DNA from: an uncultured delta proteobacterium
Lineage (GTDB): Bacteria > Desulfobacterota > Binatia > Binatales > Binataceae
Reading direction: 5' to 3'
DNA length: 64,000 bases
Assembly (NCBI GenBank): GCA_963789835.1
Contig: CAWBMF010000003.1
Span: 441,068-505,067 of the forward strand
Shown here: piece by piece, positions 3,017 through 15,902 of the stretch
Layout: each line of letters starts with the position of its first letter
How positions within the stretch are numbered: the first letter of the stretch is position 1
Notes under the pieces: generated by a model
What the model was told of the DNA's origin: nothing
The model's input: only the letters and a program-made list of their open reading frames with translations
Databases searched by the model: none
Position numbers and translations under genes: made by a program

Positions 3017-4771
3017 ATGAATACAGATCTAGTGACAGACAAAACCGACGAGCGCAGTCCCACCTCAGATAGGTTCGATCGCGTTTTCTGGAAACGCTTT
3101 TGGCGATTGATCCGCCCGTATTGGACATCGGAAAGACGGCGGTCGGCCTTCGTGCTGGTTTCGGCAATGACGGTGCTGAATCTCGGCACGGTCGGGATGC
3201 AAGCGGTTTTCAGCTACGTGTCGCGCGACGTGATGAACGCGCTGCAAGCGAAAGACGCCGCACGGTTTCATCATCTCCTGGTGCTATTCGCGCTTTGGAT
3301 CGTGGTGTTCGTGCCCATCGCTGCCTTTTATCCATACTTAAGCGGGCTCCTCAGCATCGACTGGCGCGACTGGATGACAGAAAAATTTGTCAAAGGCATG
3401 CTGCAGGGCAACGCGCTTTACTACATCATGCGCGATCGTACGGTCGACAATCCCGACCAGCGGATCAGCGAAGACGTCAATAGCTTCACGAGCGGTGCGC
3501 TTACCTACTCGATGACCGTGCTGCAGGCGATCGTAACTGCAATCGCGTTTTTTGGAATCTTGTGGGAGATCTCGCGTTGGCTCGCCGTAAGCTTGATCGG
3601 CTATTCGCTGGTCGGCAGCTGGCTGGCCATCGTCATCGGACGCCGTCTGATAGTTATCAACTTCAATCAGCAACGGTTCGAAGCGGACTATCGGTTCGGA
3701 TTGGTCCACGCGCGCGACAATGCCGAAGCGATCGCGCTCTACGACGGCGCGCGCGATGAAGCTCATCAGCTAGGGCGGCGCTTTGCGAGGGTGGTCAACA
3801 ATTACAAGCTGCTCATTTTGTGGCAGCGTCATCTGACGCTCTTTACAGCCGCCTACGACAACGCGGCCAACCTCGTCCCATATTTCGTTTTGGCCGGCGC
3901 CTACTTTTCCGGACGTTTTGCGCTGGGCGAATTTACCCAAGCGGCGTATGCGTTTTCGATTCTGCAGAGTTCGATGGCGCTGGTTGTCGATCAATTCCAG
4001 GCACTTACCGACTACGCATCGGTGGTTAATCGTCTGTCGGTTTTCGAGGAGTCCTGTGAAAAGGCAGCCAGCAAGCAAAGCGATGGCGAGCAGCAAATCG
4101 AGGTAGCGGAAGATGACTCACAGATTGCGCTTAAGAACATCACCCTGGCGACGCCGGATCGCGCGCGCGTTTTGCAGCAGGATGTTTCACTTGCGGTCGC
4201 CCGTAGAGACTCTCTGCTGATCACCGGTCCGACCGGTGCGGGCAAGACCTCGCTCATGAGGGCTGTCGCGGGCCTATGGAGAGCCGGTAGCGGGGGAATC
4301 TTGCGGCCGTCGCCGAATCATATCCTGTTCATGCCACAAAAGCCTTATTTGATCCTGGGTTCGATTCGCCAACAGATTCAATATCCAAGGGCCGACGCGG
4401 TCAGCGACGAAACTCTCATGGAAGTGCTGCGCGAAGTCGACCTTGCCTATCTCCCCGGCCGGTTCGGCGGTCTCGACGCCGAGCTCAACTGGGCCGACTT
4501 GCTGTCGGGGGGCGAGCAGCAGCGTCTGGCCTTCGCGCGGCTCCTGCTCAGTCGACCGCGCTTTGCAATTCTCGACGAGGCAACCAGCGCTCTCGATATT
4601 GCTTCTGAAGAGCGCTTGTACTCGCGGCTTGCGAGCCTGCCCATCGCCTTTATCAGCATCGGGCACCGGCCAAGCCTGCGCAAATTCCATAACCGGGTGA
4701 TCGAGCTGTCCCTTGGCTCCGAGTCGCCGATCGAGATCGTCGGATGCGCCACTAACGAGTCCTCATCCTGA
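3017..4771 (+). CDS. fused ABC transporter permease/ATP-binding protein (ABCD / SbmA-BacA-like, ABC_membrane_2 type)
   Basis: N-terminal TM domain contains the NPDQRISEDV motif. C-terminal NBD has Walker A (GPTGAGKTS), the ABC signature LSGGEQQRLAFARLL and Walker B (ILDEATSALD). Confidence 0.8.
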   Translation: MNTDLVTDKTDERSPTSDRFDRVFWKRFWRLIRPYWTSERRRSAFVLVSAMTVLNLGTVGMQAVFSYVSRDVMNALQAKDAARFHHLLVLFALWIVVFVPIAAFYPYLSGLLSIDWRDWMTEKFVKGMLQGNALYYIMRDRTVDNPDQRISEDVNSFTSGALTYSMTVLQAIVTAIAFFGILWEISRWLAVSLIGYSLVGSWLAIVIGRRLIVINFNQQRFEADYRFGLVHARDNAEAIALYDGARDEAHQLGRRFARVVNNYKLLILWQRHLTLFTAAYDNAANLVPYFVLAGAYFSGRFALGEFTQAAYAFSILQSSMALVVDQFQALTDYASVVNRLSVFEESCEKAASKQSDGEQQIEVAEDDSQIALKNITLATPDRARVLQQDVSLAVARRDSLLITGPTGAGKTSLMRAVAGLWRAGSGGILRPSPNHILFMPQKPYLILGSIRQQIQYPRADAVSDETLMEVLREVDLAYLPGRFGGLDAELNWADLLSGGEQQRLAFARLLLSRPRFAILDEATSALDIASEERLYSRLASLPIAFISIGHRPSLRKFHNRVIELSLGSESPIEIVGCATNESSS

Positions 4772-4844
4772 TGCAATCGGGAAAAGAATCCTGGTGAGAG
4801 AGAACCATGCTTCCGGCTTGATCGCGCCCTCCTCGCCTCCAGAG

Positions 4845-5444
4845 TCAGCTGGGCGGTTGCTTATCCGGTGCCGCATCTCCGTCAAGCAAGCGCTGCAAAT
4901 GGCTGGAGGGAGATTCGTGCGCGGCGTGGCCGTCGTGCCCGGTATTCAAAGCGCAGGCCGGCGTGACGTGAGTCTGCGGCGGCTTGAACTCTGTGGGCAA
5001 CAAACGCTCGCGGGCTGCCCACTGATCGAAATTGCCGGGAGCGCTCGCCAGCAGGCGAAATCGCATACAGACAGTGTTGCAGCCACAACCGGAATCGCAA
5101 TTTCCGTGGAGCTCGCCGGGTGACTTGACGATCAGATCAAGTGGCCGCGTCTTACCGGGAAAGATGTCCACCGCGTCTTTCATTCCAGAAATCCAAAAGC
5201 TGTGGATCACGTCGGCGGAGGCGAGTTCAAGCCGCACATTCGTAGCAGTGGGAAGGTACAGTACATCGCTGGTCTTGATGCCGAGCGACGGGTAATCGAA
5301 TTCCCACCACCACTGATGCGCGACCGCCTTGACCGTGAGCGCAGGCCGGCTGTCGCCATCGACGATTCGAGCGACAGAGATCACTCCGGCGCAGATGCAC
5401 GCCAGACCGACGAGGGCTGCCACGAATGGCAAGGACGATTTCAT
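4845..5444 (-). CDS. cytochrome c oxidase subunit II-like cupredoxin domain protein (single N-terminal TM/signal, divergent CuA motif)
   Basis: HQWWWEFDYP and DVIHSFWIS match the COX2 cupredoxin core. Metal-site region reads HGNCDSGCGCNTVCM, where canonical COX2 reads CxExCGxxHxxM. Start overlaps the upstream SCO gene stop (ATGA). Confidence 0.6.
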   Translation of the reverse strand: MKSSLPFVAALVGLACICAGVISVARIVDGDSRPALTVKAVAHQWWWEFDYPSLGIKTSDVLYLPTATNVRLELASADVIHSFWISGMKDAVDIFPGKTRPLDLIVKSPGELHGNCDSGCGCNTVCMRFRLLASAPGNFDQWAARERLLPTEFKPPQTHVTPACALNTGHDGHAAHESPSSHLQRLLDGDAAPDKQPPS

Positions 5445-6172
5445 GCGCGCGCCGCCTGAAAGATAAGCGCTATGATGGCGCCGTCGGCGGCCGCAACCGG
5501 CTCGTGATCTACAGCCTTCTCGACGTCGCTCGCGACGCGGTCCGGCTCGGCCTTCTCGCCCATGTACTGCAGCAATGCTTTGCCGTTCGCATCGACCAGG
5601 AAGAACTCGAGAACATGATCGACGGTGCCGTCCGCTTCGTGCTTTCGAATCAGATCGAAATGCGCCATCACATCGTCGATCTGTTTTGGCGTTCCCGTAA
5701 GAAACAGCCAGCCATTAACGTCGGCGCCTTGTGCCTTCGCGTATGCGTTCAGCTGTGTAGGTTGATCGTGTTCGGGATCAACCGTGATCGACACGATGCG
5801 CGCTTCCGTTCCAAGCTTGGGCCCGAGTCGATTGGCAATCTGCTTCATCCGGCTCGTGAGGACGAGGCACGGTCCCGGACAGGTGGTGTAGATGAAATCG
5901 AACAGCACGGGTTTGCCCTTCAGCGAGGCCAGGGAAACGTTGTGGCCGTTCTGATCGACCAGCGTGATATCGGGCAAGCAGTCGGAGGCGTCGCGCACCT
6001 CGAATCCTCCACGCTCGCCGATGTCTGGTGCCTCTTGAGCCTGCTGGCGGCAACCAGTCAGCGTCACCGCGCCAACGAGCGTGATCAGCAGCGTCAGAAA
6101 TAAGCTTTTCCTGATTGACGAAACGGTTCGAGTAGAATTCATGGTACTTCTTTTTTTAATTCTCGCCGGCAT
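5441..6172 (-). CDS. SCO1/SenC-family copper chaperone/thiol-disulfide protein (lipoprotein)
   Basis: Thioredoxin-like fold with FIYTTCPGPC (CxxxC) and a downstream His. N-terminal lipobox LTGC. Alternative start MNSTR at ~6142 would remove the overlap with the upstream gene. Confidence 0.75.
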   Translation of the reverse strand: MPARIKKRSTMNSTRTVSSIRKSLFLTLLITLVGAVTLTGCRQQAQEAPDIGERGGFEVRDASDCLPDITLVDQNGHNVSLASLKGKPVLFDFIYTTCPGPCLVLTSRMKQIANRLGPKLGTEARIVSITVDPEHDQPTQLNAYAKAQGADVNGWLFLTGTPKQIDDVMAHFDLIRKHEADGTVDHVLEFFLVDANGKALLQYMGEKAEPDRVASDVEKAVDHEPVAAADGAIIALIFQAARA

Positions 6173-6620
6173 AATTTCTTCGGAGCGCCTCGCGTATCTG
6201 TTCGACCGGCGAGCCCTGCTCCGACAGTTGCTCCGCCATCAACGCCTCTCCGACGCAGATTTCGCACACCGAGGCGTGGGTGCCTCGATAACAATCGAGC
6301 AGATTCTGATGGCCGTAGGTCTTGTCGCATCCGCAATAGCAATGGAGTTGAGCGAGCAGCGCGGGATTCTTCTCCGCGACCTGGTACGCCTGCTTTACCG
6401 GACCGACGTACTGGTTAGGATCGAGCGTCAAGCGCCCCTGCGATCCGCTAGTGGCAACCGTTCCTGCAGTCGCCCGGCCCGCGCAGCAGCAATGGCCCCC
6501 AATGCACATCGCGCCGCGCGCACCGCCATTGTCCGCGATTGAGGCGCCGAACGCTGACCAGAGAAATGCCACTACCAGAACGGCCGCGGCCGAGGAGCCT
6601 AAAATAATTGCTCGCTTCAT
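6156..6620 (-). CDS. PCYCGC-motif protein (PF13798-like) with Cys-rich N-terminal segment
   Basis: HCYCGCDKTYGHQNLLDCY... motif. Signal/TM segment followed by CIGGHCCCAGR. Confidence 0.6.
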   Translation of the reverse strand: MKRAIILGSSAAAVLVVAFLWSAFGASIADNGGARGAMCIGGHCCCAGRATAGTVATSGSQGRLTLDPNQYVGPVKQAYQVAEKNPALLAQLHCYCGCDKTYGHQNLLDCYRGTHASVCEICVGEALMAEQLSEQGSPVEQIREALRRNYAGEN

Positions 6621-6630
6621 TCCGGCACTC

Positions 6631-7275
6631 TCAACTATGGCTCAGAGTTTTCTTAACGTCGTCGACGATGTCCTGCGCCTTGACGATCTGACCGTTGTAT
6701 TCTCGCACCAGCCGCCCATCCGGTCCAATCAGCATCATATTGACCAGGTGGCCGACCGAACCGTCCGGCTCGATTTCCCGGCTCAGCTTGAATCCGGCCA
6801 GCGCCTGATCGATGTCGCCGGGACCTCCGGTCAGGAAATACCATCCCTTCTCATCCGCCCCTTGCTGACGGGAGTAGTCGAGCAATTGCTTGGGCCCGTC
6901 ATGCTCGGGATCGACGGTGATCGAAACGAGCGTCACCTTCGATCCGAGATCGCTGCCGAGCCGCAGCGCGACGTTCGCAAATTTTGCCGTTTCCATCAGG
7001 CACGGTCCCGGGCATGACGTGTAGATGAAATCCACCACCAGTGGTTTGCCCTTGAGTGATGAGAGCTCAACCGTATTGCCATTCTGATCGACCAGCTTGG
7101 TGTCGGTGAGGACACTAGCGGGGCCATTCACGGTTGAGCCGCTGTGGCATCCAGCCGCTGTAAATAAGCTCGAAGCTACGGCCAGCACGATGCCGAGAGA
7201 TCTAAGATTGAAACTAATATTACTCATATCTGTCTCCGTCAAAAGCTGTAACTCAAGATCGTTTTGATCGCGCAA
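6631..7275 (-). CDS. SCO1/SenC-family protein (second copy)
   Basis: FIYTSCPGPC CxxxC motif. Paralogous to 5441..6172 (VDQNGxxVxLxSLKGKPxxxDFIYTxCPGPC). Confidence 0.75.
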   Translation of the reverse strand: MRDQNDLELQLLTETDMSNISFNLRSLGIVLAVASSLFTAAGCHSGSTVNGPASVLTDTKLVDQNGNTVELSSLKGKPLVVDFIYTSCPGPCLMETAKFANVALRLGSDLGSKVTLVSITVDPEHDGPKQLLDYSRQQGADEKGWYFLTGGPGDIDQALAGFKLSREIEPDGSVGHLVNMMLIGPDGRLVREYNGQIVKAQDIVDDVKKTLSHS

Positions 7276-7297
7276 GGCGCCACCAATACTCGCGGCT

Positions 7298-7672
7298 TCA
7301 TGGCGTCAGCGACCACGTCAGGACCGGGAGGGGGACCTTCCGATCGAGTGCTTCGGCGTTCTCATACATGGTGCGATCGTCCTCAGCGAGGGTCTCTCTT
7401 GCTTGATTCGAGTTGGCCACGCATTGAGACACATCGCGCTTGAAATACAGTGACTGGATTTCCAGCGGAGAGAGCGCGCCGAGAGGCATCACGACGTTGC
7501 TGGTTACAGCGTCGTCGCTCATCGCCGCTTCTTCGATGCACTTATCCTCGTTTTGATCGAGGCGCTGCTCAGCCTGTTCGAGGTTACTCTTTGCCGCGAC
7601 CGAGTTGTCCGGAGTTTGCGTTGCACAGCCGACGAGAAGAATCGCGATAATGGCGAAGACTCTCATCTTCAA
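7298..7672 (-). CDS. hypothetical lipoprotein
   Basis: Signal peptide plus lipobox (LLVGC). Acidic, coiled protein. Translationally coupled with the upstream TlpA gene (overlap at 7669-7672). Confidence 0.45.
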   Translation of the reverse strand: MKMRVFAIIAILLVGCATQTPDNSVAAKSNLEQAEQRLDQNEDKCIEEAAMSDDAVTSNVVMPLGALSPLEIQSLYFKRDVSQCVANSNQARETLAEDDRTMYENAEALDRKVPLPVLTWSLTP

Positions 7673-8103
7673 TGTCCCTGGCCCGCGTCGTGGGACGCCG
7701 CTCGTTCAGACAATAACGGCAGGACGGCCTTGCTCAGGCTTTGCTCAGTCAGAGGAGTTTCGTCGGGGGTCAGCTTAGCGCGAACAATACCCTGCTCGTC
7801 GACGATGTAAGTGATGGGGAGTTCGGTAGGATCGTTGAAGCCGTTGGATTCGCAATCGCGCAACATCGCTGCCGGGTAAGCGAAGGACTCCATCGTCTTG
7901 GCAACATCCGACCGTTCGTGCAGCCGATTAGCCGCCAGACCGATCATCTCGAGTCCCTTGTCGTGATAGCGTCGATAGAACGCGTCGAGCGTCGGCATTT
8001 CCGCCTGGCACGGAGGGCACCAAGTGGCCCAGAAGTTGACTACGACCACCTTTCCGCGTTGTGCGGCGAGATCAAAGGATTGGCCGTTCAACTCCTGGAC
8101 CAC
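7669..8103 (-). CDS. TlpA/ResA-like thiol-disulfide oxidoreductase (thioredoxin fold); N-terminus probably extends upstream
   Basis: VVNFWATWCPPCQAEMP motif. ORF track starts at a GTG (8101-8103). The same frame stays open up to ~8217 and encodes a signal-like NALAALVLLTISFAATSAC, but has no canonical start codon. Confidence 0.65.
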   Translation of the reverse strand: MVQELNGQSFDLAAQRGKVVVVNFWATWCPPCQAEMPTLDAFYRRYHDKGLEMIGLAANRLHERSDVAKTMESFAYPAAMLRDCESNGFNDPTELPITYIVDEQGIVRAKLTPDETPLTEQSLSKAVLPLLSERAASHDAGQGH

Positions 8104-8223
8104 AAGTGCCGGCGCCGCCTGGCCGATTTCTGCTCCGCCGAAAGCCTCGCACGCACTCGTAGCCGCAAACGAGATTGTCAGAAGAACGAGCGCCGCGAGT
8201 GCATTGCCGCATCTCGATCACCT

Positions 8224-9195
8224 TCAGAAGCTATAGCTGACGATCGTTTTGATCGCGTAAGGCGCCGACAACTGGTAGCCGTTCATGTTGCGAAATATCG
8301 GCAGCTCGACATCTGAGTACCACCTAATCGACTTGTACGCCGTCTCAAGACCAGGAGCGACTTGTATTCTGAAGTAACCACTATCGTGGGGATCTGAATT
8401 TGTCCCGCGGTCGTGGTTCCGGTCGCTGACCAGAAACGTCAGGAACGGCGCAAATTCCGTGAGATAACTGACCTTACCGAAATCGTAGTACGTCCCATAG
8501 CCTCCGTCGAACTCGTGGCCGGGCTTGTAATGGTCCTGATACGCGAACGGCTGATCCCACATGCCTTGCGCATAGTAGCCAAAGGGGCGATCTTCCAATT
8601 TCAGTATCGGAAGAGTGCCCATGTGGTAAGCGCCTATCAGCAGGTCGGTGCTGCCCGTTCCGATCTGAGTGTCACGATCCCACGGCGGGTAGTGCCAGTT
8701 GCCCGACGGAACCTTGAAACCGGCCAAGACACCGGTCGACATATCCTCCTGCAAGCCCGTCCACATGCCCAATATGCGGATGTCGCCTATCGAGTTCGAG
8801 TCGTACGACTTCACGTCATCGTTGTCGCCATTGTAGGCGCCTCGATAATTCCTCTCCCAGTAGGGCACTTCCAGCATCACGCCCCAGCTCCGATTGAACA
8901 TGTATTGCCCGCCGACGGTAACAAAGTTGGTCGCCAACTTCTTGTCGTTGTTGTACTGCCCCGAGGCTGGCCCCGTTGCGTGCCAGTTTATGTACTGGTT
9001 CATGAAGTCGTACTCGATCCACGCCATCGCACCAGCGCCCATAGGAAGCAGTGAGGGCGTCGCGACTTCGAACACCCCACATCCGCATGCGCACGCCCGA
9101 ACCATGCCAGGCGTTAGCCCCACAAATAGAACGGCGGCGACCAACAAGCGTCGAGCCGCGTTGGACAAAAGCACAAACTCAGAAATCCGTCTCAT
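8224..9195 (-). CDS. putative outer-membrane beta-barrel protein
   Basis: Signal peptide, Gly/Tyr/aromatic-rich alternating sequence and C-terminal ...IVSYSF (terminal Phe). Unusual N-terminal MRACACGCGVFE Cys cluster. Confidence 0.5.
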   Translation of the reverse strand: MRRISEFVLLSNAARRLLVAAVLFVGLTPGMVRACACGCGVFEVATPSLLPMGAGAMAWIEYDFMNQYINWHATGPASGQYNNDKKLATNFVTVGGQYMFNRSWGVMLEVPYWERNYRGAYNGDNDDVKSYDSNSIGDIRILGMWTGLQEDMSTGVLAGFKVPSGNWHYPPWDRDTQIGTGSTDLLIGAYHMGTLPILKLEDRPFGYYAQGMWDQPFAYQDHYKPGHEFDGGYGTYYDFGKVSYLTEFAPFLTFLVSDRNHDRGTNSDPHDSGYFRIQVAPGLETAYKSIRWYSDVELPIFRNMNGYQLSAPYAIKTIVSYSF

Positions 9196-9349
9196 CTAAC
9201 CTTCCCCCGGCGAACACCTAGTGGCGCGCCGTTACCTGAACGAAAAGCCTCGCGCCCTGATGCTCGTAACATCGGGCGCTCAAATCGGATTGCTTGTCGA
9301 ACGAAGCTTTTAGACTGAGTGCTTAGGGGGAGGAGTATCGGGAGCGACC

Positions 9350-9625
9350 TTAAAATCGATCGATTGCACCGATTTTGTCACGGTGGTCGAGCCCAGGTCG
9401 AAAAGAGCGAACTCTGGTAGAACTGTCGCTGGACGGGCAAGCAACATGTTCTGAGACCTGATCGAACATTTGAAGCGGCTGGCAAATGTTAACGGTCAGT
9501 TCTGGATGGCTCGGTCCGGAGACAATCACGAACCCAGCAGTCGAGGGAGCGCTTCCCAAGAACAACACGATCGCTAAGATTAAACTCAACGCCCGTAGGT
9601 CAGCCTTTGAAAACAAGCCCCGCAT
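9350..9625 (-). CDS. small membrane/secreted protein (paralog of 10675..11031), partner of DUF2318 gene
   Basis: MRGLFSKADLRALSLILAIVLFLGSAPSTAGFVIVSGPSHPELTVNICQPLQMFD. Near-identical N-terminal half to the 10675..11031 product. Confidence 0.4.
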   Translation of the reverse strand: MRGLFSKADLRALSLILAIVLFLGSAPSTAGFVIVSGPSHPELTVNICQPLQMFDQVSEHVACPSSDSSTRVRSFRPGLDHRDKIGAIDRF

Positions 9626-9639
9626 ACTGCAGTGCACCC

Positions 9640-10131
9640 TTAGAACAGTCCCCGCTCGCGTTCAAGATCGGCCGGGTTGATGTTGACGGTGTGGCCAGTC
9701 GTCTGGAACGGCAGTTTCACCGGCACACACGACACGAACCCGGACTCCATTGATTCCAACTTGTATCGAGTGCCGCAATATCTGCAGACGAGATACCCGT
9801 GTGAACTGGCGTAACCCTCGCCATACATGGAGCAGCGTCGGCACGCGTCGAAAGCTCCCTTAATCTTTCCAGTGGAGTCACGAGCTAGAAGAAACCGAAT
9901 CTGGTCGCCCGCCCGATCCTTGTATGAGAAGAAATGAACATCACCGGGCTGTAGGCTATCGGTTTCAATGCTTACGATCGGATTTGCGCTGACGGTGATG
10001 AATTGAGGACCCGTCGCCATCGCGACCAATGAGACTGCGACTGTCATGAAAGCAGCGGCAATCAACAGTCCAGTACGCCCTCGAAATCTGGTGATCGCGG
10101 AAGCCGTTTTTAAGGACCGCGGAATCTTCAT
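9640..10131 (-). CDS. DUF2318-like Cys-rich membrane protein (CxxC...CxxC)
   Basis: TM segment followed by FDACRRCSMYGEGYASSHGYLVCRYCGTRYKL...CVPVKLP. Start placed at internal MKIPRSLK to avoid overlap with the upstream YHS gene; the ORF could extend to 10233. Confidence 0.5.
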   Translation of the reverse strand: MKIPRSLKTASAITRFRGRTGLLIAAAFMTVAVSLVAMATGPQFITVSANPIVSIETDSLQPGDVHFFSYKDRAGDQIRFLLARDSTGKIKGAFDACRRCSMYGEGYASSHGYLVCRYCGTRYKLESMESGFVSCVPVKLPFQTTGHTVNINPADLERERGLF

Positions 10132-10180
10132 AGCGAACGTCCTACCGTGTGTCTCAGTTAGACTCGAGCCGCGCGACCGC

Positions 10181-10552
10181 TTAAGGTGCCGAGTTCGCGG
10201 CGGGCGTAATGCCTTCCGATAGATGCTTCGCAAGATACTTCTTGGGAGTTTTCACGAAAGCGTCGCGCTCCATGTCGTCGCAAAAGTAGTAATCCTTCCC
10301 ATCGAACGTGGCGGCTGGCGTATCGGACTTTACCGTAAGATGCATTCCGCAATACGCGCACATCGTCTTCTTTCCAACGTCACTGGCTGGCGCTTGCGAA
10401 AGAACGCTTGCGATCTCAGGCGAAGCCGCGCGAGCGGAACCTGAGAAGTAGAAAAAGCCACTCAGAACCACCGACATCGTCGCGATTAAGACGATGGCCT
10501 TGTTTCTATGCAGTGCACTGCTCTTTCGTATCTCGGCTGATGTGAAATTCAT
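10181..10552 (-). CDS. YHS-domain-like metal-binding protein (membrane-anchored)
   Basis: N-terminal TM segment. MCAYCGMHLTVKSDTPAATFDGKDYYFCDDMERDAFVKTP resembles the YHS/TRASH CxxCGM motif. Confidence 0.5.
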   Translation of the reverse strand: MNFTSAEIRKSSALHRNKAIVLIATMSVVLSGFFYFSGSARAASPEIASVLSQAPASDVGKKTMCAYCGMHLTVKSDTPAATFDGKDYYFCDDMERDAFVKTPKKYLAKHLSEGITPAANSAP

Positions 10553-10674
10553 CTTTTATCTCCCGTCGCAATGAGCCGACTGACGCGACAATTCACCTGA
10601 AACGAAAAGCCTTGCGCCGCGCCATCCGCGGCGTCGGGCGCGCAAATCGTAATCAGGTTGTCGAACGGAACTAT

Positions 10675-11031
10675 CTAGACGGGTAGCTTTGGCGGCGGCG
10701 TGTCGGGAGCGAAGCGAAAATCGACCGGTCGCCCAGCCATCTTGACAACGGTCAAGCCCAGGTCGCGCAGAACGAACTCGGGCTGTACCGTCGCAGGTCG
10801 GGCAAGCAAGGTGTTCGACGCACGGTCGAACATTTGAAGCGGCTGGCAGATGTTGACGGTCAATTCAGGATGACTCGGTCCGGAGATAACGACGAACCCT
10901 GCCGTCGAAGGGAAGCTGGCCAACAACATGACGATGGCCAGGATTAAACTCAGATCTCGAAGATCCGACTTTGAAAACATGCGTCCCATTTCTTCTACAG
11001 ATCTCTTAGAACAGTCCTCGCTCATGTTCAA
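10675..11031 (-). CDS. small membrane/secreted protein (paralog of 9350..9625)
   Basis: MFSKSDLRDLSLILAIVMLLASFPSTAGFVVISGPSHPELTVNICQPLQMFD. C-terminal tail diverges from the other copy. Confidence 0.4.
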   Translation of the reverse strand: MNMSEDCSKRSVEEMGRMFSKSDLRDLSLILAIVMLLASFPSTAGFVVISGPSHPELTVNICQPLQMFDRASNTLLARPATVQPEFVLRDLGLTVVKMAGRPVDFRFAPDTPPPKLPV

Positions 11032-11039
11032 GATCGACG

Positions 11040-11419
11040 GGCTTGATGTCGACGGTGTGCCCGGTCATCCGAAATGGCAATTTCACGGGCACGCATGATC
11101 CGCGCCCGGATTCCATCGCATCCAACTTGTACCGATTGCCGCAATATCCGCAGACGAGGTCCCCGTGTGAACTGTCATAGCCCTTCCGATACATCGAGCG
11201 CCGTCGAATTCCTTGCCTGGCACATAGAGGTCGCTGTGCAGAAACGGATATTCGTACTGAACCTGCGCGTACCAGTTGATGGGCCGCTCCCACAAGGTGA
11301 GGTTGAAGTTGCCAATCCGGTTCGGAAGCGACCCTGTGTGTGGCGAATTGTTGATTTTGGCAGAACCGGAAGCCGGAGTGCAGACTTGCTAACGGTCCCC
11401 ACTCTCCCAAGGACAGCAA
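11040..11419 (-). pseudogene. degenerate DUF2318 paralog fragment fused to an outer-membrane-protein-like remnant
   Basis: The last ~65 aa (RRRSMYRKGYDSSHGDLVCGYCGNRYKLDAMESGRGSCVPVKLPFRMTGHTVDIKPVDLEHERGLF) align with the C-terminus of 9640..10131. The first CxxC and the TM region are lost. An overlapping frame (11083..11295) reads like the C-terminal strands of a beta-barrel protein. Confidence 0.4.
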
Positions 11420-11504
11420 ATGATCCCCACGACTCCGCTACCGCTCGCCGGTAAGACCGCTCGTCACCAAATGCACCTTTGCCGGCGTCAGTTTTATGGA
11501 ACTG

Positions 11505-14500
11505 CTACTTGGGGCATACTCCCGTCGTGTTCGGTTGCGTCGAGTAGAGGCATTGTGCGCCAGCTATAGTTGAGTTTTGGAGATTGTAGTTGACGTTCCA
11601 TTGGAACGGATTATCAGGATTCATTGCGTTGAATGGCGACGGCATCGGCCGCTCATCGCGATCATCGGCAACGAAGCACTTATCCTTCTCGTTGGGACCG
11701 CACGCGGCAGGAAAGGTTATCTGGAAGGCCGGACAACCCGGTGCCGGGCAGTCTACAAACTGGGGAGGGCAGCCGGCTGGATTCGTACAGTTAAGAGGGA
11801 AAGGCTGAATCGACCAATCGCAAACGGTCTGACCCAAGGGATTCGTTTGTTTGCAAATGCTCGCATAGGGGCCACTCGGATTGCACTGACACCGTTCGGC
11901 GCTCTGACTCCAGGTACACATAGTAGCTGGTTGGCAATAACGCTTACCCAGTGAAACGGGAGGTTTCGTGTTCGCGGCCGTTGCATTTAAGCTATAGTTA
12001 CCAGCGATCTGGGAGAAATTGGTGCTAAGTGTCAGGATGCCCGAGCTAGGAGTATACTTAGCCGTCCATGCGCCACTCATGACATCTTTGACTGGGGCTG
12101 GAGTGAAGTTAAACGGCAGGGTTAAACCTTCGTAGCCGAAGACTACATTGGTTGCGGCGAAGTCTTTGTTGTCCTTTGTCGGTATATTCTTACCCACGAA
12201 CACCTGGTAGGTCTGCTGCGTGTCCTGCTTCGAGAAGAGAAAGAAAAGATCGTAGACGCTCCCGCCAGTAAAAACATTGAAACTTTGGAAAGGTGGGACC
12301 GCGTTCGCCTGGCTCTTCCTCGAGACCGTCGTGTTGAGGTAGTAGGCGCCGTGATTGACGGTCAGAGCGCTGCGCTGGAAATTGTTCTGCCCCATCATCC
12401 GCTTCAATTGGATATCGGGATCTGTTTTTTCTCCCGGCGTGAGTAGTTGTCGATAGAGCTGTACGCCGGGGCATCCGAAGTTGGGAGGTGACGCCGTACA
12501 GACGCTGCCCCAGTTGTCGTCGTTTGGACAAAAACTGGGAGCTCCACTCTCAGGAGGCGGCGGAGCCAGCTTTGCGCATTCAGGATAGATCACCGTACTT
12601 ACATATTCGTAGGGGCTGGTTTTCGCGGTAGCGGGCAAGCACTTTGGAGCATAAGTACTGGCATTTGTCGGATAATCCGAAGCGCATTCCCAGGCTTCGG
12701 TCGGAGCCTTGAAGAAATCCGCCTTGTTGACCGAGATTGTGTCGTACTGGGTGCTCATACTTGGGGTTGGTGTCGCTGTTGGTACGGGAGGACCCACCGG
12801 GCTGGTCAAGCCGGTCAGCGTGCCGTCATCGTCGTTCAACACCGTCTCTCGATCGATGTCGGTAAAGCCTTGGAAGTATGCTGGATTCCAAGTGCAGTAT
12901 TCTTTTTTCGTCGCGTCCTCGTCGGTTTTGAAGCTCAAGGGGCCCTTTAGGAAGCTTGGGTCGGTGACAAAATGGCGGATGTCGACGCCGTTGAAGTACA
13001 GATTGAGCGAATGAAACGCGGGCGCGTAGTAAAAGCCGTTGGGCTGTTTCCATCCAATCCCTGCGTTGGGCTCAAAGCAGCGAGCGCCACCAGCGATCGG
13101 CATGTCCTTCGCGTCGAGCGGCCGGTAAGCGCGCAGGCCATTGACCCCGCCACTAATGAAACCCGCAAACTGACAGGGATTGCCGGCGACGCTGCTAGGC
13201 TCACACTTGCCGCCCTTGGTATCCAGCACCGCGCCTTTGGCAGTTCCGTCGGCGGTCAACCAGGTAGGGTGAATGTCGAGATAGGCGTTGGAGTCCTGAA
13301 AAATGGGACCGTCGTAAACGCTGAAGAGCCGCTGAAAGCCTGCGAAGGCGCCTACCTGAAAGTTCACGCCATCTTTCTGCGATAGACAGAATGCATTGTT
13401 AGAATTTCCGTTGAAGGGATCGAGGGCGCAGGTCAATCCAGTGATTTTACTGTTCTCGCCTGTTCCAATCGTGGCCTTAAATGGATTGAAAGGTCCGGCG
13501 TTGGACGCGTAGGGATTCGCGGCGAGAGCGCTGTTATTTGGATTCTGCCATTGAGAACTCCCGATGAGCGCAGATTGCCGCACCAACCCCCAATAACCGG
13601 GAAATACAGAAGCAGCGTCGTAACCGCCACTGGTTACGAAATTGACTCCGGCGTTCTGCGGATCGCTGATGATGCTGTCAACTGCCAACGACCACAGCGA
13701 TCTCATCCAGACGGCGGCGAAGTTGCCCTCCGCCCAGTTGAACGAGGTCGTAAACCCGTTGAGCACGACCACGTCGCAATTGGCTTGATTCGCCGATGCG
13801 CAGATGGGGACGGTTGAGCAGTCGGGGTTGGTGTTGCCATTGTCAGCCGCCGGACAGCGCGTCGGCAGACGCAGGCCGGTGACCTGAGGCCAGTAAGCAG
13901 TGCCGGAGGGCGGCGGAGCCTGGGGTGAGGGCACCATCAGAAGCGTAGAGTTTGGAGCTTTCAGGAAACTCGGATCAATCTGGTTGACGCCGTTGCAAGC
14001 GGCTAGAGCGCCGACCTCGACAAAGCCTTCCATTGCCGTGCTACAGGAGTTGCCGACGAAGTTTTGCAGCGGGCTGATGCCGGCCCGTCCTATGCCGACT
14101 TGCTCGCCGGCGTATCCGTACCATTTCTCGGTCTGCGAAGGGCCGCTAATCGCTCCCGGCACCAGCCAGTAGCAGGCGCCGCACTCGCCGGCGCCGGCCG
14201 CCATGTTGTACTGGAAGTCATTCATGCCGTTCATGATCCAGAACACTGACGGATTTTGTGAGTCCGAGTAATAAGGAAGGGTGCTATATCCGCTGACACA
14301 AAATTGAGGAGTCTCTTTTGTACAGCAATTTGGAGGGTTGCCCGTACAGGTTGGCGCAGTAGCCGTCAGGATACCTGGAACCATGCGCGGATTCTGCGGA
14401 TTGGCGTCGGCCGCCGTTAAGCCATTGGCCACTGCGCCGCGCGCGAAAGCGCCGAGATTGGCGTACAGCTGATTGCCGGTCTCGGTGCCGTCCTCGAGAT

Positions 14501-15902
14501 AATAGCCGTGACCGATCGACTCGAAGCCTACATTGCGCGCCAGCCGGACGCCCTGGGTAGCATGAATCGTTATCCAGCGCGTCATTGAATCCCATATCGA
14601 AGAGTCCTTGACGAAGGTGATCGGCTGGGTCGCGCCTATCCCTGGCACCTGGCGGTCCATGTGGAAGTGCACCGGGTAGTGCATGATGCTGCCGCCCTGG
14701 CCGAGTTGATAGAACTCGACGCCCTGCACCTGGTAAAGCAGGAAGCCCTGACGCACGATAGTGTGGCCGCCGAAATAGTTGTCGGGATTTCCCGGATCGA
14801 CTGTGAACTCCGAGCCCGGCGTATCGCCGTCGGAAACAACCCGGATGTTGCGCGACAGCAACCCCACCGAGGCGCGCAGATCGCCCGAGGTAGGGAAGTT
14901 CGGCCCAAGACGCGATATGCCGGGGAAGGTCGCGTTGGACAGGTCGAATAGTTGCCCATTGTGCGGATACTGGACCGCGGTGAGGAGTGGAATCGTCGTA
15001 ACCCCGCCGCTGGTAGTGGGCGTACCATTGATATTCAGGTGCTCCGAATGCCCAGGCAGATAGTCGGTGGTGGTCAGTACGATATCGTCGCCGTTTTGCC
15101 AATCCACTGCGCCAGCAACCTGCAGGCTCGTATCGCCGGGCAGCGCATTCTTATTCAAGCGAACCCAGCTGGTCCCGGTGCACGAGGAACTATTTTCCAT
15201 GCATCCGGTCGCGGACGTGCTGCCATAGGTTGCGCCTTTCGCGCCGAACATTTGTAGCGTGCCGTTGTAAGACACCGCCAGCACCTTGTGCCCAAAATAG
15301 GCGGTGGGGTTGTTCGTCTGATCCGCCGGGTCCAGTGCGTCATAGTCGTAGAAGCAGTCGCTAACGCCACCTGGCAGCGCAGACGGCTTGCACGTAGCTG
15401 GATTCATCGAGCGCGTATTGGTTCCCAGGGGAGGGCTCGGGATGCCGCAGTTGGCGGACGCACAGGTAACCCCGGGATCGCCCGGCGCACCCCACAGATG
15501 AATTGTCACCAGGCCGCCGTTGGTTCCGATCGGGGTTTCAGAGCCCGCGATTAAAGCGCCGCCGCTCTCGACGACGATGTTCTCCGCGTAGAAGTCGATC
15601 TGCGCGTCATCGAAGGTCAAGATGCCTTTACTGCCACCTGAAGTAAAAATGTTGACGTTGTGGAAGTAGTAGGTGAGAGAGGGGACGCTGGCGGAGCCCT
15701 TTACCTCGCACGGACCGGTGACCTGGAGATCGGTGGTGGCGCCGGCAGACATCTCGTTGGGCATCAACGGCATGTCCGCCGTGTCGTTACAGGTCACCAC
15801 CGTAGCCATTGCGGGGCTGGCGAAAAGTACGAACAGCATCGATAAGATCAAGCCGGAAAGTGAAAGCTTATTGGAGCATTCGATTCGAGACTTTATCGAC
15901 AT
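11505..15902 (-). CDS. very large secreted Cys-rich protein (1465 aa), function unknown; possible beta-helix / G8-like carbohydrate-active fold
   Basis: Signal peptide (LILSMLFVLFASPAMA), many Cys and Gly/Asn-rich repeats, and a central YPVHFHMDRQ motif. Long uninterrupted frame. Confidence 0.55.
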   Translation of the reverse strand: MSIKSRIECSNKLSLSGLILSMLFVLFASPAMATVVTCNDTADMPLMPNEMSAGATTDLQVTGPCEVKGSASVPSLTYYFHNVNIFTSGGSKGILTFDDAQIDFYAENIVVESGGALIAGSETPIGTNGGLVTIHLWGAPGDPGVTCASANCGIPSPPLGTNTRSMNPATCKPSALPGGVSDCFYDYDALDPADQTNNPTAYFGHKVLAVSYNGTLQMFGAKGATYGSTSATGCMENSSSCTGTSWVRLNKNALPGDTSLQVAGAVDWQNGDDIVLTTTDYLPGHSEHLNINGTPTTSGGVTTIPLLTAVQYPHNGQLFDLSNATFPGISRLGPNFPTSGDLRASVGLLSRNIRVVSDGDTPGSEFTVDPGNPDNYFGGHTIVRQGFLLYQVQGVEFYQLGQGGSIMHYPVHFHMDRQVPGIGATQPITFVKDSSIWDSMTRWITIHATQGVRLARNVGFESIGHGYYLEDGTETGNQLYANLGAFARGAVANGLTAADANPQNPRMVPGILTATAPTCTGNPPNCCTKETPQFCVSGYSTLPYYSDSQNPSVFWIMNGMNDFQYNMAAGAGECGACYWLVPGAISGPSQTEKWYGYAGEQVGIGRAGISPLQNFVGNSCSTAMEGFVEVGALAACNGVNQIDPSFLKAPNSTLLMVPSPQAPPPSGTAYWPQVTGLRLPTRCPAADNGNTNPDCSTVPICASANQANCDVVVLNGFTTSFNWAEGNFAAVWMRSLWSLAVDSIISDPQNAGVNFVTSGGYDAASVFPGYWGLVRQSALIGSSQWQNPNNSALAANPYASNAGPFNPFKATIGTGENSKITGLTCALDPFNGNSNNAFCLSQKDGVNFQVGAFAGFQRLFSVYDGPIFQDSNAYLDIHPTWLTADGTAKGAVLDTKGGKCEPSSVAGNPCQFAGFISGGVNGLRAYRPLDAKDMPIAGGARCFEPNAGIGWKQPNGFYYAPAFHSLNLYFNGVDIRHFVTDPSFLKGPLSFKTDEDATKKEYCTWNPAYFQGFTDIDRETVLNDDDGTLTGLTSPVGPPVPTATPTPSMSTQYDTISVNKADFFKAPTEAWECASDYPTNASTYAPKCLPATAKTSPYEYVSTVIYPECAKLAPPPPESGAPSFCPNDDNWGSVCTASPPNFGCPGVQLYRQLLTPGEKTDPDIQLKRMMGQNNFQRSALTVNHGAYYLNTTVSRKSQANAVPPFQSFNVFTGGSVYDLFFLFSKQDTQQTYQVFVGKNIPTKDNKDFAATNVVFGYEGLTLPFNFTPAPVKDVMSGAWTAKYTPSSGILTLSTNFSQIAGNYSLNATAANTKPPVSLGKRYCQPATMCTWSQSAERCQCNPSGPYASICKQTNPLGQTVCDWSIQPFPLNCTNPAGCPPQFVDCPAPGCPAFQITFPAACGPNEKDKCFVADDRDERPMPSPFNAMNPDNPFQWNVNYNLQNSTIAGAQCLYSTQPNTTGVCPK

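Follow-up and report, generated by a model that had tools for sequence, protein, structure and literature searches.

An old duplicated FtrD-like/small-protein module with a recently truncated FtrD-like gene in a putative copper-handling cluster of an uncultured Binataceae bacterium

We analyzed a 64-kb stretch of DNA (positions 441,068 to 505,067 of contig CAWBMF010000003.1; hereafter the window, or WIN) from an uncultured bacterium of the Binataceae (phylum Binatota). Binatota is an uncultured phylum that is predicted from its genomes to be methylotrophic and alkane-degrading. The minus strand of the window carries every gene of a cluster built around two units, each composed of a gene for an FtrD-like (DUF2318) protein and a gene for a small cysteine-containing protein. 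We designated the upstream unit FtrD#1-small#1 and the downstream unit FtrD#2-small#2. A YHS-like gene lies between the units, and a gene for an outer-membrane protein (OMP) of the beta-barrel type follows them (Table 1). Related loci that were fetched for comparison carry L-numbers (L001 and so on). Taking all the evidence together, we consider it probable that the locus is an old duplicated module of a copper cluster, that FtrD#1 was recently truncated in this lineage leaving a remnant with a promoter-like box, and that the products serve an envelope relay.

We compared the region 10560-11520 with 8200-10600 by blastn and found a single strong match, 10595-11206 to 9234-9840, with 75.7% identity over 617 columns (E 2.3e-116). 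The repeat spans the last ~66 codons (~200 nt, the 3' third) of the FtrD-like gene, the small gene and a spacer of 80-115 nt, and in either copy it ends ~40 nt short of the start codon that follows. The similarity therefore reaches past the two small genes on either side. In this respect the alignment upheld the first-pass annotation, which had read the locus as a recent tandem duplication of a DUF2318 and small-protein module with a decayed second copy. The near-identical core of ~50 amino acids (aa) that it had described in the small proteins was also recovered, with 42 of 50 residues matching when counted from the alignment, and small#1 and small#2 were 75% identical over 60 aa. FtrD#2 is a full match to PF10080 (68.4 bits, cut-off 26.3, profile positions 2-101 of 101), as had been proposed for this gene, and has orthologues in L001, L035, L027 and L002. 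The remnant open reading frame (ORF) of FtrD#1, 11006-11419, aligned to FtrD#2 residues 132-197 at 75% identity.

A scan of genomes for the small gene identified 39 loci, all in metagenome-assembled genomes of Binataceae/Binatota. L001 was 90% identical to the window at the nucleotide level across 11199-8210. L001 and L053-L055 have the order FtrD(156)-small(104)-YHS(123)-FtrD(163)-small(104)-OMP-SCO1-PCYCGC-TlpA-130 aa-SCO1-COX2 (lengths in aa), and in the L053-L055 lineage all the genes are intact in three samples. L008 has the same two-unit order as L001 with the four unit genes intact, and rearranged two-unit variants occur in L002/L003, L027 and L035. In neighbour-joining trees, which were built on 100-160 aa and have no support values, the upstream and downstream copies formed separate clades for both the small and the FtrD-like proteins, and each clade spanned several genomes. 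The ratio of nonsynonymous to synonymous substitution rates (dN/dS) between genomes was 0.15-0.27 for both small paralogues, with 0.18-0.24 for small#1 against its orthologues. The shared arrangement, the separate clades and the dN/dS values indicate that the two-unit state, whether it arose by duplication or by fusion of diverged loci, is older than the genomes compared. Judged from these comparisons, the two units are old paralogues and both are under purifying selection in related genomes. The ancestral order in the clade (minus strand, 5' to 3') is FtrD#1-small#1-YHS-FtrD#2-small#2-OMP; SCO1, PCYCGC, TlpA, a second SCO1 and a CoxB-like cupredoxin come after the OMP in an order that varies by lineage.

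FtrD#1 is broken in the window. Its ORF (11006-11419) matched PF10080 at positions 42-101 only (36.4 bits, cut-off 26.3), in agreement with the earlier observation that this paralogue keeps just the C-terminal CxxC half. The remnant has neither the N-terminal anchor nor the first CxxC and is thus not a complete domain. On the minus strand the junction reads GAATTCGACGGC/GCTCGATGTAT, with a 2-nt microhomology, and lies inside the second Cys codon of the L001 CRQC. Base by base the minus strand reads GGCAAGGAATTCGACGGC/GCTCGATGTATCGG, and the two sources have only GC in common at the joint. The sequence to the right of the joint is L001-type FtrD#1 (90% nucleotide identity from 11199 downstream) and that to the left is a 140-nt piece of an OMP gene, 97.1% identical to L026 11004-11143 and 93.6% identical to L002 12314-12453. 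Read in another frame (11340-11197), this piece matched the window OMP (8224-9195) with an E of 1.8e-6; its amino acid identity was 96% to the L026 OMP and only 44% to the window's own OMP. The fragment corresponds to residues ~191-237 of about 327. Hence the proposal that the N-terminus had been replaced by barrel sequence in another frame proved right as to origin, but the strands are mid-barrel and not C-terminal. We also searched 11150-11560 for additional barrel pieces, inverted ones included, and only the 140-nt fragment was significant. The filler at 11338-11504 had no nucleotide or translated match in the fetched loci outside its own lineage or elsewhere in the window.

The 63 codons retained in the remnant differ from the intact L001 gene at one residue, indicating that the truncation event was recent, and no decay is visible in the remaining 200 nt of FtrD#1. 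Full-length 156-aa FtrD#1 alleles share a 90% cluster with the 62-aa remnant product. Since these full-length orthologues exist at an identity of at least 90%, the FtrD part of the fragment is a pseudogene, while no orthologues of the entire chimeric ORF occur beyond the lineage that carries it; a check for full-length orthologues of the fragment (given earlier as 11040-11419) thus had a different answer for the FtrD part and for the chimera. The junction recurs in at least six independent samples: the order G8-fragment-small#1-YHS-FtrD#2 was present in six assemblies from six samples, one being the Logan assembly of run SRR28024189, with the junction segments 97-100% identical, and the exact 62-aa product was found on 24 contigs from four sources (NCBI, JGI, ENA and Logan). 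The cluster is a mosaic in which 11199-8210 is L001-like and 8322-4874 is colinear with L002 12632-16130 (83.5%), including a 93%-identical TlpA. The G8/CEMIP gene upstream of the fragment was beside the cluster in none of 43 related loci outside the window's lineage, and we therefore take it to mark the rearrangement boundary. As far as the sampled sequences tell, the truncation is shown to be one recent illegitimate-recombination event that every sampled member of the lineage carries. In this event, recombination at the 2-nt microhomology fused a 140-nt piece of a different barrel allele into the middle of FtrD#1, deleted the membrane anchor and the first CxxC, and brought in the unrelated DNA adjoining the G8/CEMIP gene.

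The small protein had 212 database homologues, nearly all of 104 aa and unnamed. Because of this family length we placed small#1 at 10675-10989 with its start at the ATG at 10989, and not extending to 11031 as first annotated; an alternative 118-aa reading was rejected, as the ATG at 10989 is the family start. A protein identical to small#1 was indexed in 49 blocks of the sequence collection, of which 24 contigs were read. The partner is uncharacterised, as had been stated, since no Pfam match was found at E 0.01 (a chance-level one at E 10) and no NCBIfam match at E 0.1. A profile search of 1.84 billion representatives gave a wider family of 97 clusters at 50% identity, almost all of ~100-108 aa. 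In this family the N-terminus resembles a signal sequence, PDxPPPK lies at the C-terminus and one Cys is invariant; this Cys and the PPP of PDxPPPK, its core, held in 33 aligned members. The Cys motif is usually DICHPLQ in the wider family and NICQPLQ in Binatia. In the AlphaFold2 (AF2) model, built from 106 sequences, residues 7-25 form a helix and residues 48-61 a short one, alongside coil of low confidence; the pLDDT (predicted local distance difference test) of 55 was too low for the model to be used in a fold search.

The small gene of the downstream unit, small#2, occupies 9310-9625 and is frameshifted, which also changes its first-pass coordinates. Small#1 matched it in two frames, 9628-9449 and 9459-9310, and the ORF 9350-9637 is a frameshifted reading of small#2. 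At the frameshift site the window has TCAGAAC, with one extra base, where sibling strains have TCAGGC or TCGAAC. Small#2 is intact (104 aa) in L045 and L001 and carries different indels in L044, L046, L047 and L048. Exact look-ups of the frameshifted product and of the intact L045 allele found neither in the sequence collection. Thus the damage is split between the units, the FtrD-like gene being broken in one and the small gene frameshifted in the other. The first-pass view of a decayed second copy therefore stands for its FtrD-like gene; its small#1, however, is intact, and it is the supposedly good copy whose small gene is frameshifted. The lineage may resolve redundancy by reciprocal loss, retaining small#1 and FtrD#2.

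We consider the chance that the window's frameshift could be a long-read consensus error to be about even. The broader alternative, in which only FtrD#1 is broken and a polishing error hides two working small genes beside one FtrD-like gene, falls slightly short of even. It draws on TCAGAAC looking like a blend of the two sibling alleles, on the intact small#2 of L045 and L001, on sibling indels that sit at varied places, some in homopolymers, and on the low dN/dS of small#2 between genomes. However, small#2 was the richest in substitutions and indels. Among sibling strains it was 93.4-96.9% identical versus 96.6-100% for other segments (the other variable segments were the lipoprotein-like gene lp124, 91.8-99.5%, and the small#2-OMP spacer, 92.0-100%), it had 14 gaps versus 0-9 in mostly longer neighbouring genes of the sibling assemblies, and its raw nonsynonymous:synonymous count was 22:21 versus 4:22 for the OMP. 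Sequencing error alone is insufficient here because it would not concentrate in small#2, and the variability among siblings fits relaxed constraint.

Fusion of two diverged loci by recombination or horizontal transfer, rather than tandem duplication in place, has a smaller but real chance of explaining the two-unit arrangement. Small#1 grouped with single-copy FtrD-small-OMP-SCO1-PCYCGC-TlpA loci (L005-L007, L010), and small#2 grouped with the single-copy L026 and L027, of which L026 has an OMP-TlpA-lipoprotein order. Some genomes hold two separate loci, such as L006 and L010 on one contig, and the window cluster is visibly mosaic. In the sister lineage (L053 1-1817; also L001/L054) a gene for a large serine recombinase (Resolvase and Recombinase domains) and a DUF2924 gene lie ~8 kb upstream of the cluster, a proximity that is compatible with fusion and may hint at mobile-element carriage. 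On the other hand, the duplicated segment ends, relative to the next start codon, where a simple tandem event would be expected to leave it, and the trees that separate the copies come from short proteins.

The original annotation, in which the unit was recently duplicated in tandem in this genome and its second copy then underwent gradual reductive decay, is very unlikely to be right. The units are adjacent, co-oriented and 75.7% identical, and one FtrD copy is truncated. However, both units are intact and at the same positions in other Binataceae (L001/L053-L055, L008), and orthologues are closer than paralogues: window small#1 was 92% identical to the upstream L001 copy versus 75% between the window's own copies over the shared 60-aa core. 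A recent lineage-specific duplication would have left sister copies in an arrangement missing from relatives, and we found neither. Gradual decay fits poorly with a single junction and with a retained part that is almost identical to the intact L001 gene, and small#1 of the supposedly decayed copy is the best-conserved gene of its unit. We preferred an old duplication with one recent truncation over this explanation.

The chance that the 62-aa remnant (Met at 11194, one CxxC and one further Cys) is itself a functional small protein is a shade lower still. Gene finders called its ATG-start ORF in 5 of 6 sibling assemblies, it was 99-100% conserved among strains, and it scored above the PF10080 threshold. 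With no signal or anchor it would be cytoplasmic, however, and apart from its periplasmic partners; it is without the first CxxC, which was present in every aligned full-length FtrD-like protein; and other lineages delete the FtrD ORF to 10-15 codons. Recency explains its conservation, and the flanks are just as similar between strains (99.5-100% for the 3' end of G8). Least probable of all is an assembly artefact from mis-joined strains or paralogous loci, for which the L001-like/L002-L026-like mosaic, the 97% identity of the 140-nt insert to the OMP of another genome and the indels common in related contigs could be cited, since non-homologous sequences sharing 2 nt are not where assemblers join and the identical structure recurred in all six samples and across all four sources of the 62-aa product.

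We aligned the 60 nt upstream of the small genes and found a box, CTTGAAC-N17-TA(G/A)(A/G)A, ~42 nt before the small ATG in 42 of 46 small genes of relatives, counted by its TTGAAC-like first part. Nineteen of the 42 box-bearing loci are without an FtrD ORF, and these keep the hexamers 17 nt apart; the four of them that have diverged furthest (L031-L034) retain both boxes and the 17-nt spacing with a changed spacer sequence. Nineteen Binatia loci without an FtrD ORF retain its last 10-15 codons (..DLERERGLF). The pattern TTGAAC-N17-TARRA had one match in the 64-kb window, with 0.02 expected. The synonymous rate (dS) was 0.10-0.15 at the FtrD#1 3' end versus 0.73-0.86 in the adjacent small#1 (WIN-L008 and L001-L008 pairs). 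A generic sigma-70 promoter/terminator scan flagged neither the conserved box nor the hairpins, so we relied on comparative conservation. The box is probably the small gene's own promoter, lying inside the FtrD-like coding sequence, and would be read by sigma-70 or possibly an extracytoplasmic function (ECF) sigma factor; its second hexamer is without the usual T6. The FtrD#1 remnant would persist because it carries the promoter-like box of small#1. The truncation in this lineage, a natural one, shows that the cell can dispense with one FtrD-like paralogue but not with the small gene and the box upstream of it.

A GC hairpin with a U-tract was conserved in the small-OMP spacers of 12 aligned Binatia loci and was present in the fold. 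This hairpin is a candidate partial terminator or attenuator that may set the small:OMP ratio. An Rfam scan of 4500-12000 at E 1 gave no match, indicating that the conserved spacer is not a known RNA family.

Table 1. Features of the cluster and its upstream flank in the window.
Feature	Position	Strand	Remarks
G8/CEMIP beta-helix gene	11505-15902	minus	1465 aa, Cys-rich, G8 and CEMIP domains; directly upstream of broken FtrD#1
Unmatched filler	11338-11504	minus	167 nt between G8/CEMIP gene stop and barrel fragment
B-type outer-membrane barrel fragment	11198-11337	minus	140 nt; frame differs from FtrD remnant
FtrD#1 3' remnant	11006-11206	minus	~63-66 codons; pseudogene
Promoter-like box before small#1	11003-11032	minus	CTTGAAC-N17-TAAGA; second box overlaps FtrD#1 stop codon
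small#1	10675-10989	minus	Intact, 104 aa, predicted exported/anchored; NICQPLQ and APDTPPPK motifs
Hairpin and U-tract after small#1	10599-10643	minus	GC-rich; inside duplicated segment
YHS/TRASH-like gene	10181-10552	minus	123 aa, N-terminal hydrophobic segment; between the two units
FtrD#2	9640-10131	minus	163 aa, FtrD-like/DUF2318; N-terminal hydrophobic segment, CxxC...CxxC, fifth Cys
Promoter-like box before small#2	9637-9666	minus	CTTGAAC-N17-TAAGG, in FtrD#2 3' end
small#2	9310-9625	minus	Downstream paralogue; +1 frameshift near 9450-9455
Hairpin and U-tract after small#2, before OMP	9238-9279	minus	
A-type OMP, outer-membrane beta-barrel	8224-9195	minus	323 aa; CACGCG block after predicted signal peptide
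TlpA-like redoxin	7669-8211	minus	Pfam/NCBIfam match
Lipoprotein-like gene (lp124)	7298-7672	minus	124 aa
SCO1	6631-7227	minus	Pfam/NCBIfam match
PCYCGC/CYCXC protein	6156-6620	minus	Pfam/NCBIfam match
Second SCO1	5441-6172	minus	Pfam/NCBIfam match
CoxB-like cupredoxin	4845-5444	minus	PF00116 match; TIGR02866 under cut-off

The genes around the units agree with the first-pass assignment of a metal-handling locus, with two SCO1 genes, a TlpA-like reductase, a PCYCGC/CYCXC protein, a YHS-like protein and a CoxB-like cupredoxin. The gene between the copies had been called a YHS-domain gene, and it is YHS-like: against PF04945 it scored 21.2 bits, under the gathering cut-off of 30.3 (E 2.9e-4, profile positions 6-44 of 47), and its product shows a CxxC...YYFC pattern. 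Its L001 orthologue, which occupies the corresponding place, is 95% identical, and the dN/dS is 0.10. The PCYCGC protein passed NF041379 'CYCXC family (seleno)protein' (111 bits, cut-off 90), and the YHS-like gene weakly touched NF041384 'YHS domain-containing (seleno)protein'. Several cluster members have relatives annotated as occasional selenoproteins. The CoxB-like cupredoxin is a stand-alone protein of 199 aa whose metal loop, CDSGCGCNTVCM, is a four-Cys variant; the canonical CuA loop is CxExCGxxHxxM.

A relic of an OMP C-terminus (..AIKTILSYSF*) lies on the minus strand at 7239-7301, between the 124-aa gene and SCO1, and is 67% identical to the true OMP end (8224-8286). Two copies of the OMP 3' end thus flank the TlpA and 124-aa segment (8210-7281). 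This segment is of the L002/L026 type, with TlpA 93% and 90% identical in aa to these and 64% to L001. Among sibling strains lp124 was the least constrained coding segment, with 20 nonsynonymous versus 9 synonymous variants and 1-4 gap openings at 91.8-99.5% identity.

We then examined how far the gene order is conserved. Among the 39 species-representative Binatia loci the OMP directly followed 37 of 43 small genes and YHS followed 3; an FtrD ORF preceded 19 of the 43, and TlpA was present in 35 loci. In 45 loci of divergent family members a barrel-like gene of the CACGCG or AHG type came next in all 31 that had enough sequence, and FtrD was upstream of the small gene in 16 of 23, with SCO1 intervening in 9 of those. 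An FtrD-like-(SCO1)-small Cys protein-barrel cassette is conserved across ~85 loci fetched from genomes and soil metagenomes. CopC/CopD accompany the cluster in L002. In L011-L018 and L023 the FtrD-like gene is missing, and the gene before the small gene looks by eye like a ZIP-family metal transporter; such a gene would be a further metal link for the small-OMP pair.

The OMP had 2166 homologues, and among the 120 matches listed none had a Pfam domain or a name. Its N-terminal block C35-A-C-G-C39 (CACGCG) is invariant. The AF2 model had a pLDDT of 78, and the best Foldseek matches were FapF (5o65/5o67) and the COG4313 channel 4rl8 (E 1.2e-8 to 5.8e-7, TM 0.53-0.68, probability 1.0), so that the model points to a 12-stranded barrel fold of matching size. 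By sequence the OMP is not a member of the FapF/COG4313 families, with no match to PF13557 even at E 10. Phmmer searches against PDB sequences gave no match for the OMP and only chance-level zinc-ribbon matches for the FtrD-like protein. In most loci of divergent family members (L050, L052, L058-L076 and others) a different barrel-like protein of ~290 aa, with a weak PF13557 match, follows the small gene. The first residue past the predicted signal-peptide cleavage of this AHG-type barrel, judged by eye, is His (..AYA/HGTVGDY..), which could indicate a histidine-brace-type metal site. No relationship between the A-type OMP alignment and the AHG-type barrel was detected by hhalign.

From the gene content we infer that the cluster handles copper in the envelope through a Cu(I)/thiol relay, with the small protein partnering the barrel. 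The small protein would be exported by Sec, through a cleavable signal peptide or an N-terminal anchor, and would be largely unstructured. Its invariant Cys, part of a Cys-His pair in most of the wider family, would bind Cu(I) or form a mixed disulfide, and it would work with the 12-stranded FapF/COG4313-like barrel encoded next. The Cys4 FtrD-like domain, the YHS-like protein, SCO1 and the TlpA-like reductase would relay metal and reducing equivalents to periplasmic cupredoxin-type targets. As a speculation that we regard as unlikely, the small protein and the barrel may form an undescribed two-partner copper-acquisition device. In such a device a disordered Cys(-His)/PDxPPPK peptide of ~73 residues would be threaded into or through the FapF/COG4313-like channel, capture Cu(I) at or beyond the outer membrane and pass it to the FtrD-like Cys4, SCO1 and YHS-like proteins, with TlpA keeping the thiols reduced and the small gene having its own promoter inside the FtrD-like gene.

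Several points weigh against the overall interpretation. Copper is deduced from the neighbours, and such Cys-rich proteins would fit other thiophilic metals too, or a relay of disulfides only; moreover, the characterised context of DUF2318, FetMP, is iron uptake. At a pLDDT of 55, 'unstructured' may mean unmodelled for the small protein. The small#2 frameshift resembles a blend of two sibling alleles and L045 is intact, so that reciprocal loss is no more than a possibility. The argument for a promoter is conservation, and against it stand the second hexamer without T6 and the generic scan that missed the box; gene conversion is another possible cause of the low dS at the 3' end of FtrD. Finally, tandem duplication in situ and fusion of two loci look alike in these data, the neighbour-joining trees being short and unsupported.

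A duplication with a pseudogene is routine genome evolution. The value of the locus is in the undescribed FtrD-(SCO1)-small-barrel cassette and its embedded promoter-like element. The cassette places the orphan DUF2318/FtrD-like domain, so far known from FetA iron uptake only, in a second setting with a copper flavour, adds a new family of small proteins that is clearly recognisable by its motifs and suggests testable partners for envelope copper supply in Binatota. A limited literature search on the domain and on Binatota copper returned only the work on FetA of Campylobacter jejuni and nothing on the cassette, and the NCBIfam CYCXC and YHS (seleno)protein models name single proteins, not a system.

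In C. jejuni, FetA belongs to the FetMP-FetABCDEF iron uptake system, has DUF2318 and YHS fused, and works with the thioredoxins FetE/FetF (PMC10783030). It is an 8-TM (transmembrane) protein whose FtrD-like domain, with two CxxC, and YHS domain are both predicted to be periplasmic, and its biochemical function is unknown (PMC10783030). Likewise, YHS-like, FtrD-like and TlpA-like proteins are encoded in the window cluster by adjacent separate genes. However, FetA is linked to the FTR1/P19 iron permease and an ABC (ATP-binding cassette) transporter, of which the window cluster has none, and the window domains are separate single-anchor proteins beside SCO1, PCYCGC and a CoxB-like cupredoxin. 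A second comparison is the TlpA-ScoI-CoxB pathway, which assembles the CuA centre in Bradyrhizobium. The window also encodes a TlpA-like reductase, SCO1-family proteins and a CoxB-like cupredoxin together, but here the CoxB-like protein stands alone with its CDSGCGCNTVCM loop and no adjacent oxidase subunit I, and the FtrD-like, small, OMP and YHS-like proteins are not in the described pathway. The third comparison is FapF, an amyloid-subunit secretion channel that exports unfolded polypeptides. The window OMP differs from FapF and the COG4313 channel in its low identity (11-14%), in having no Pfam membership, no other fap genes and a CACGCG N-terminus, and in that an AHG-type barrel fills the OMP slot in much of the wider small family. 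Even so, FapF (5o65/5o67) and the COG4313 channel Pput2725 (4rl8) are 12-stranded barrels of OMP-like size, and the window OMP gene is preceded by one for a small exported protein with predicted disorder.

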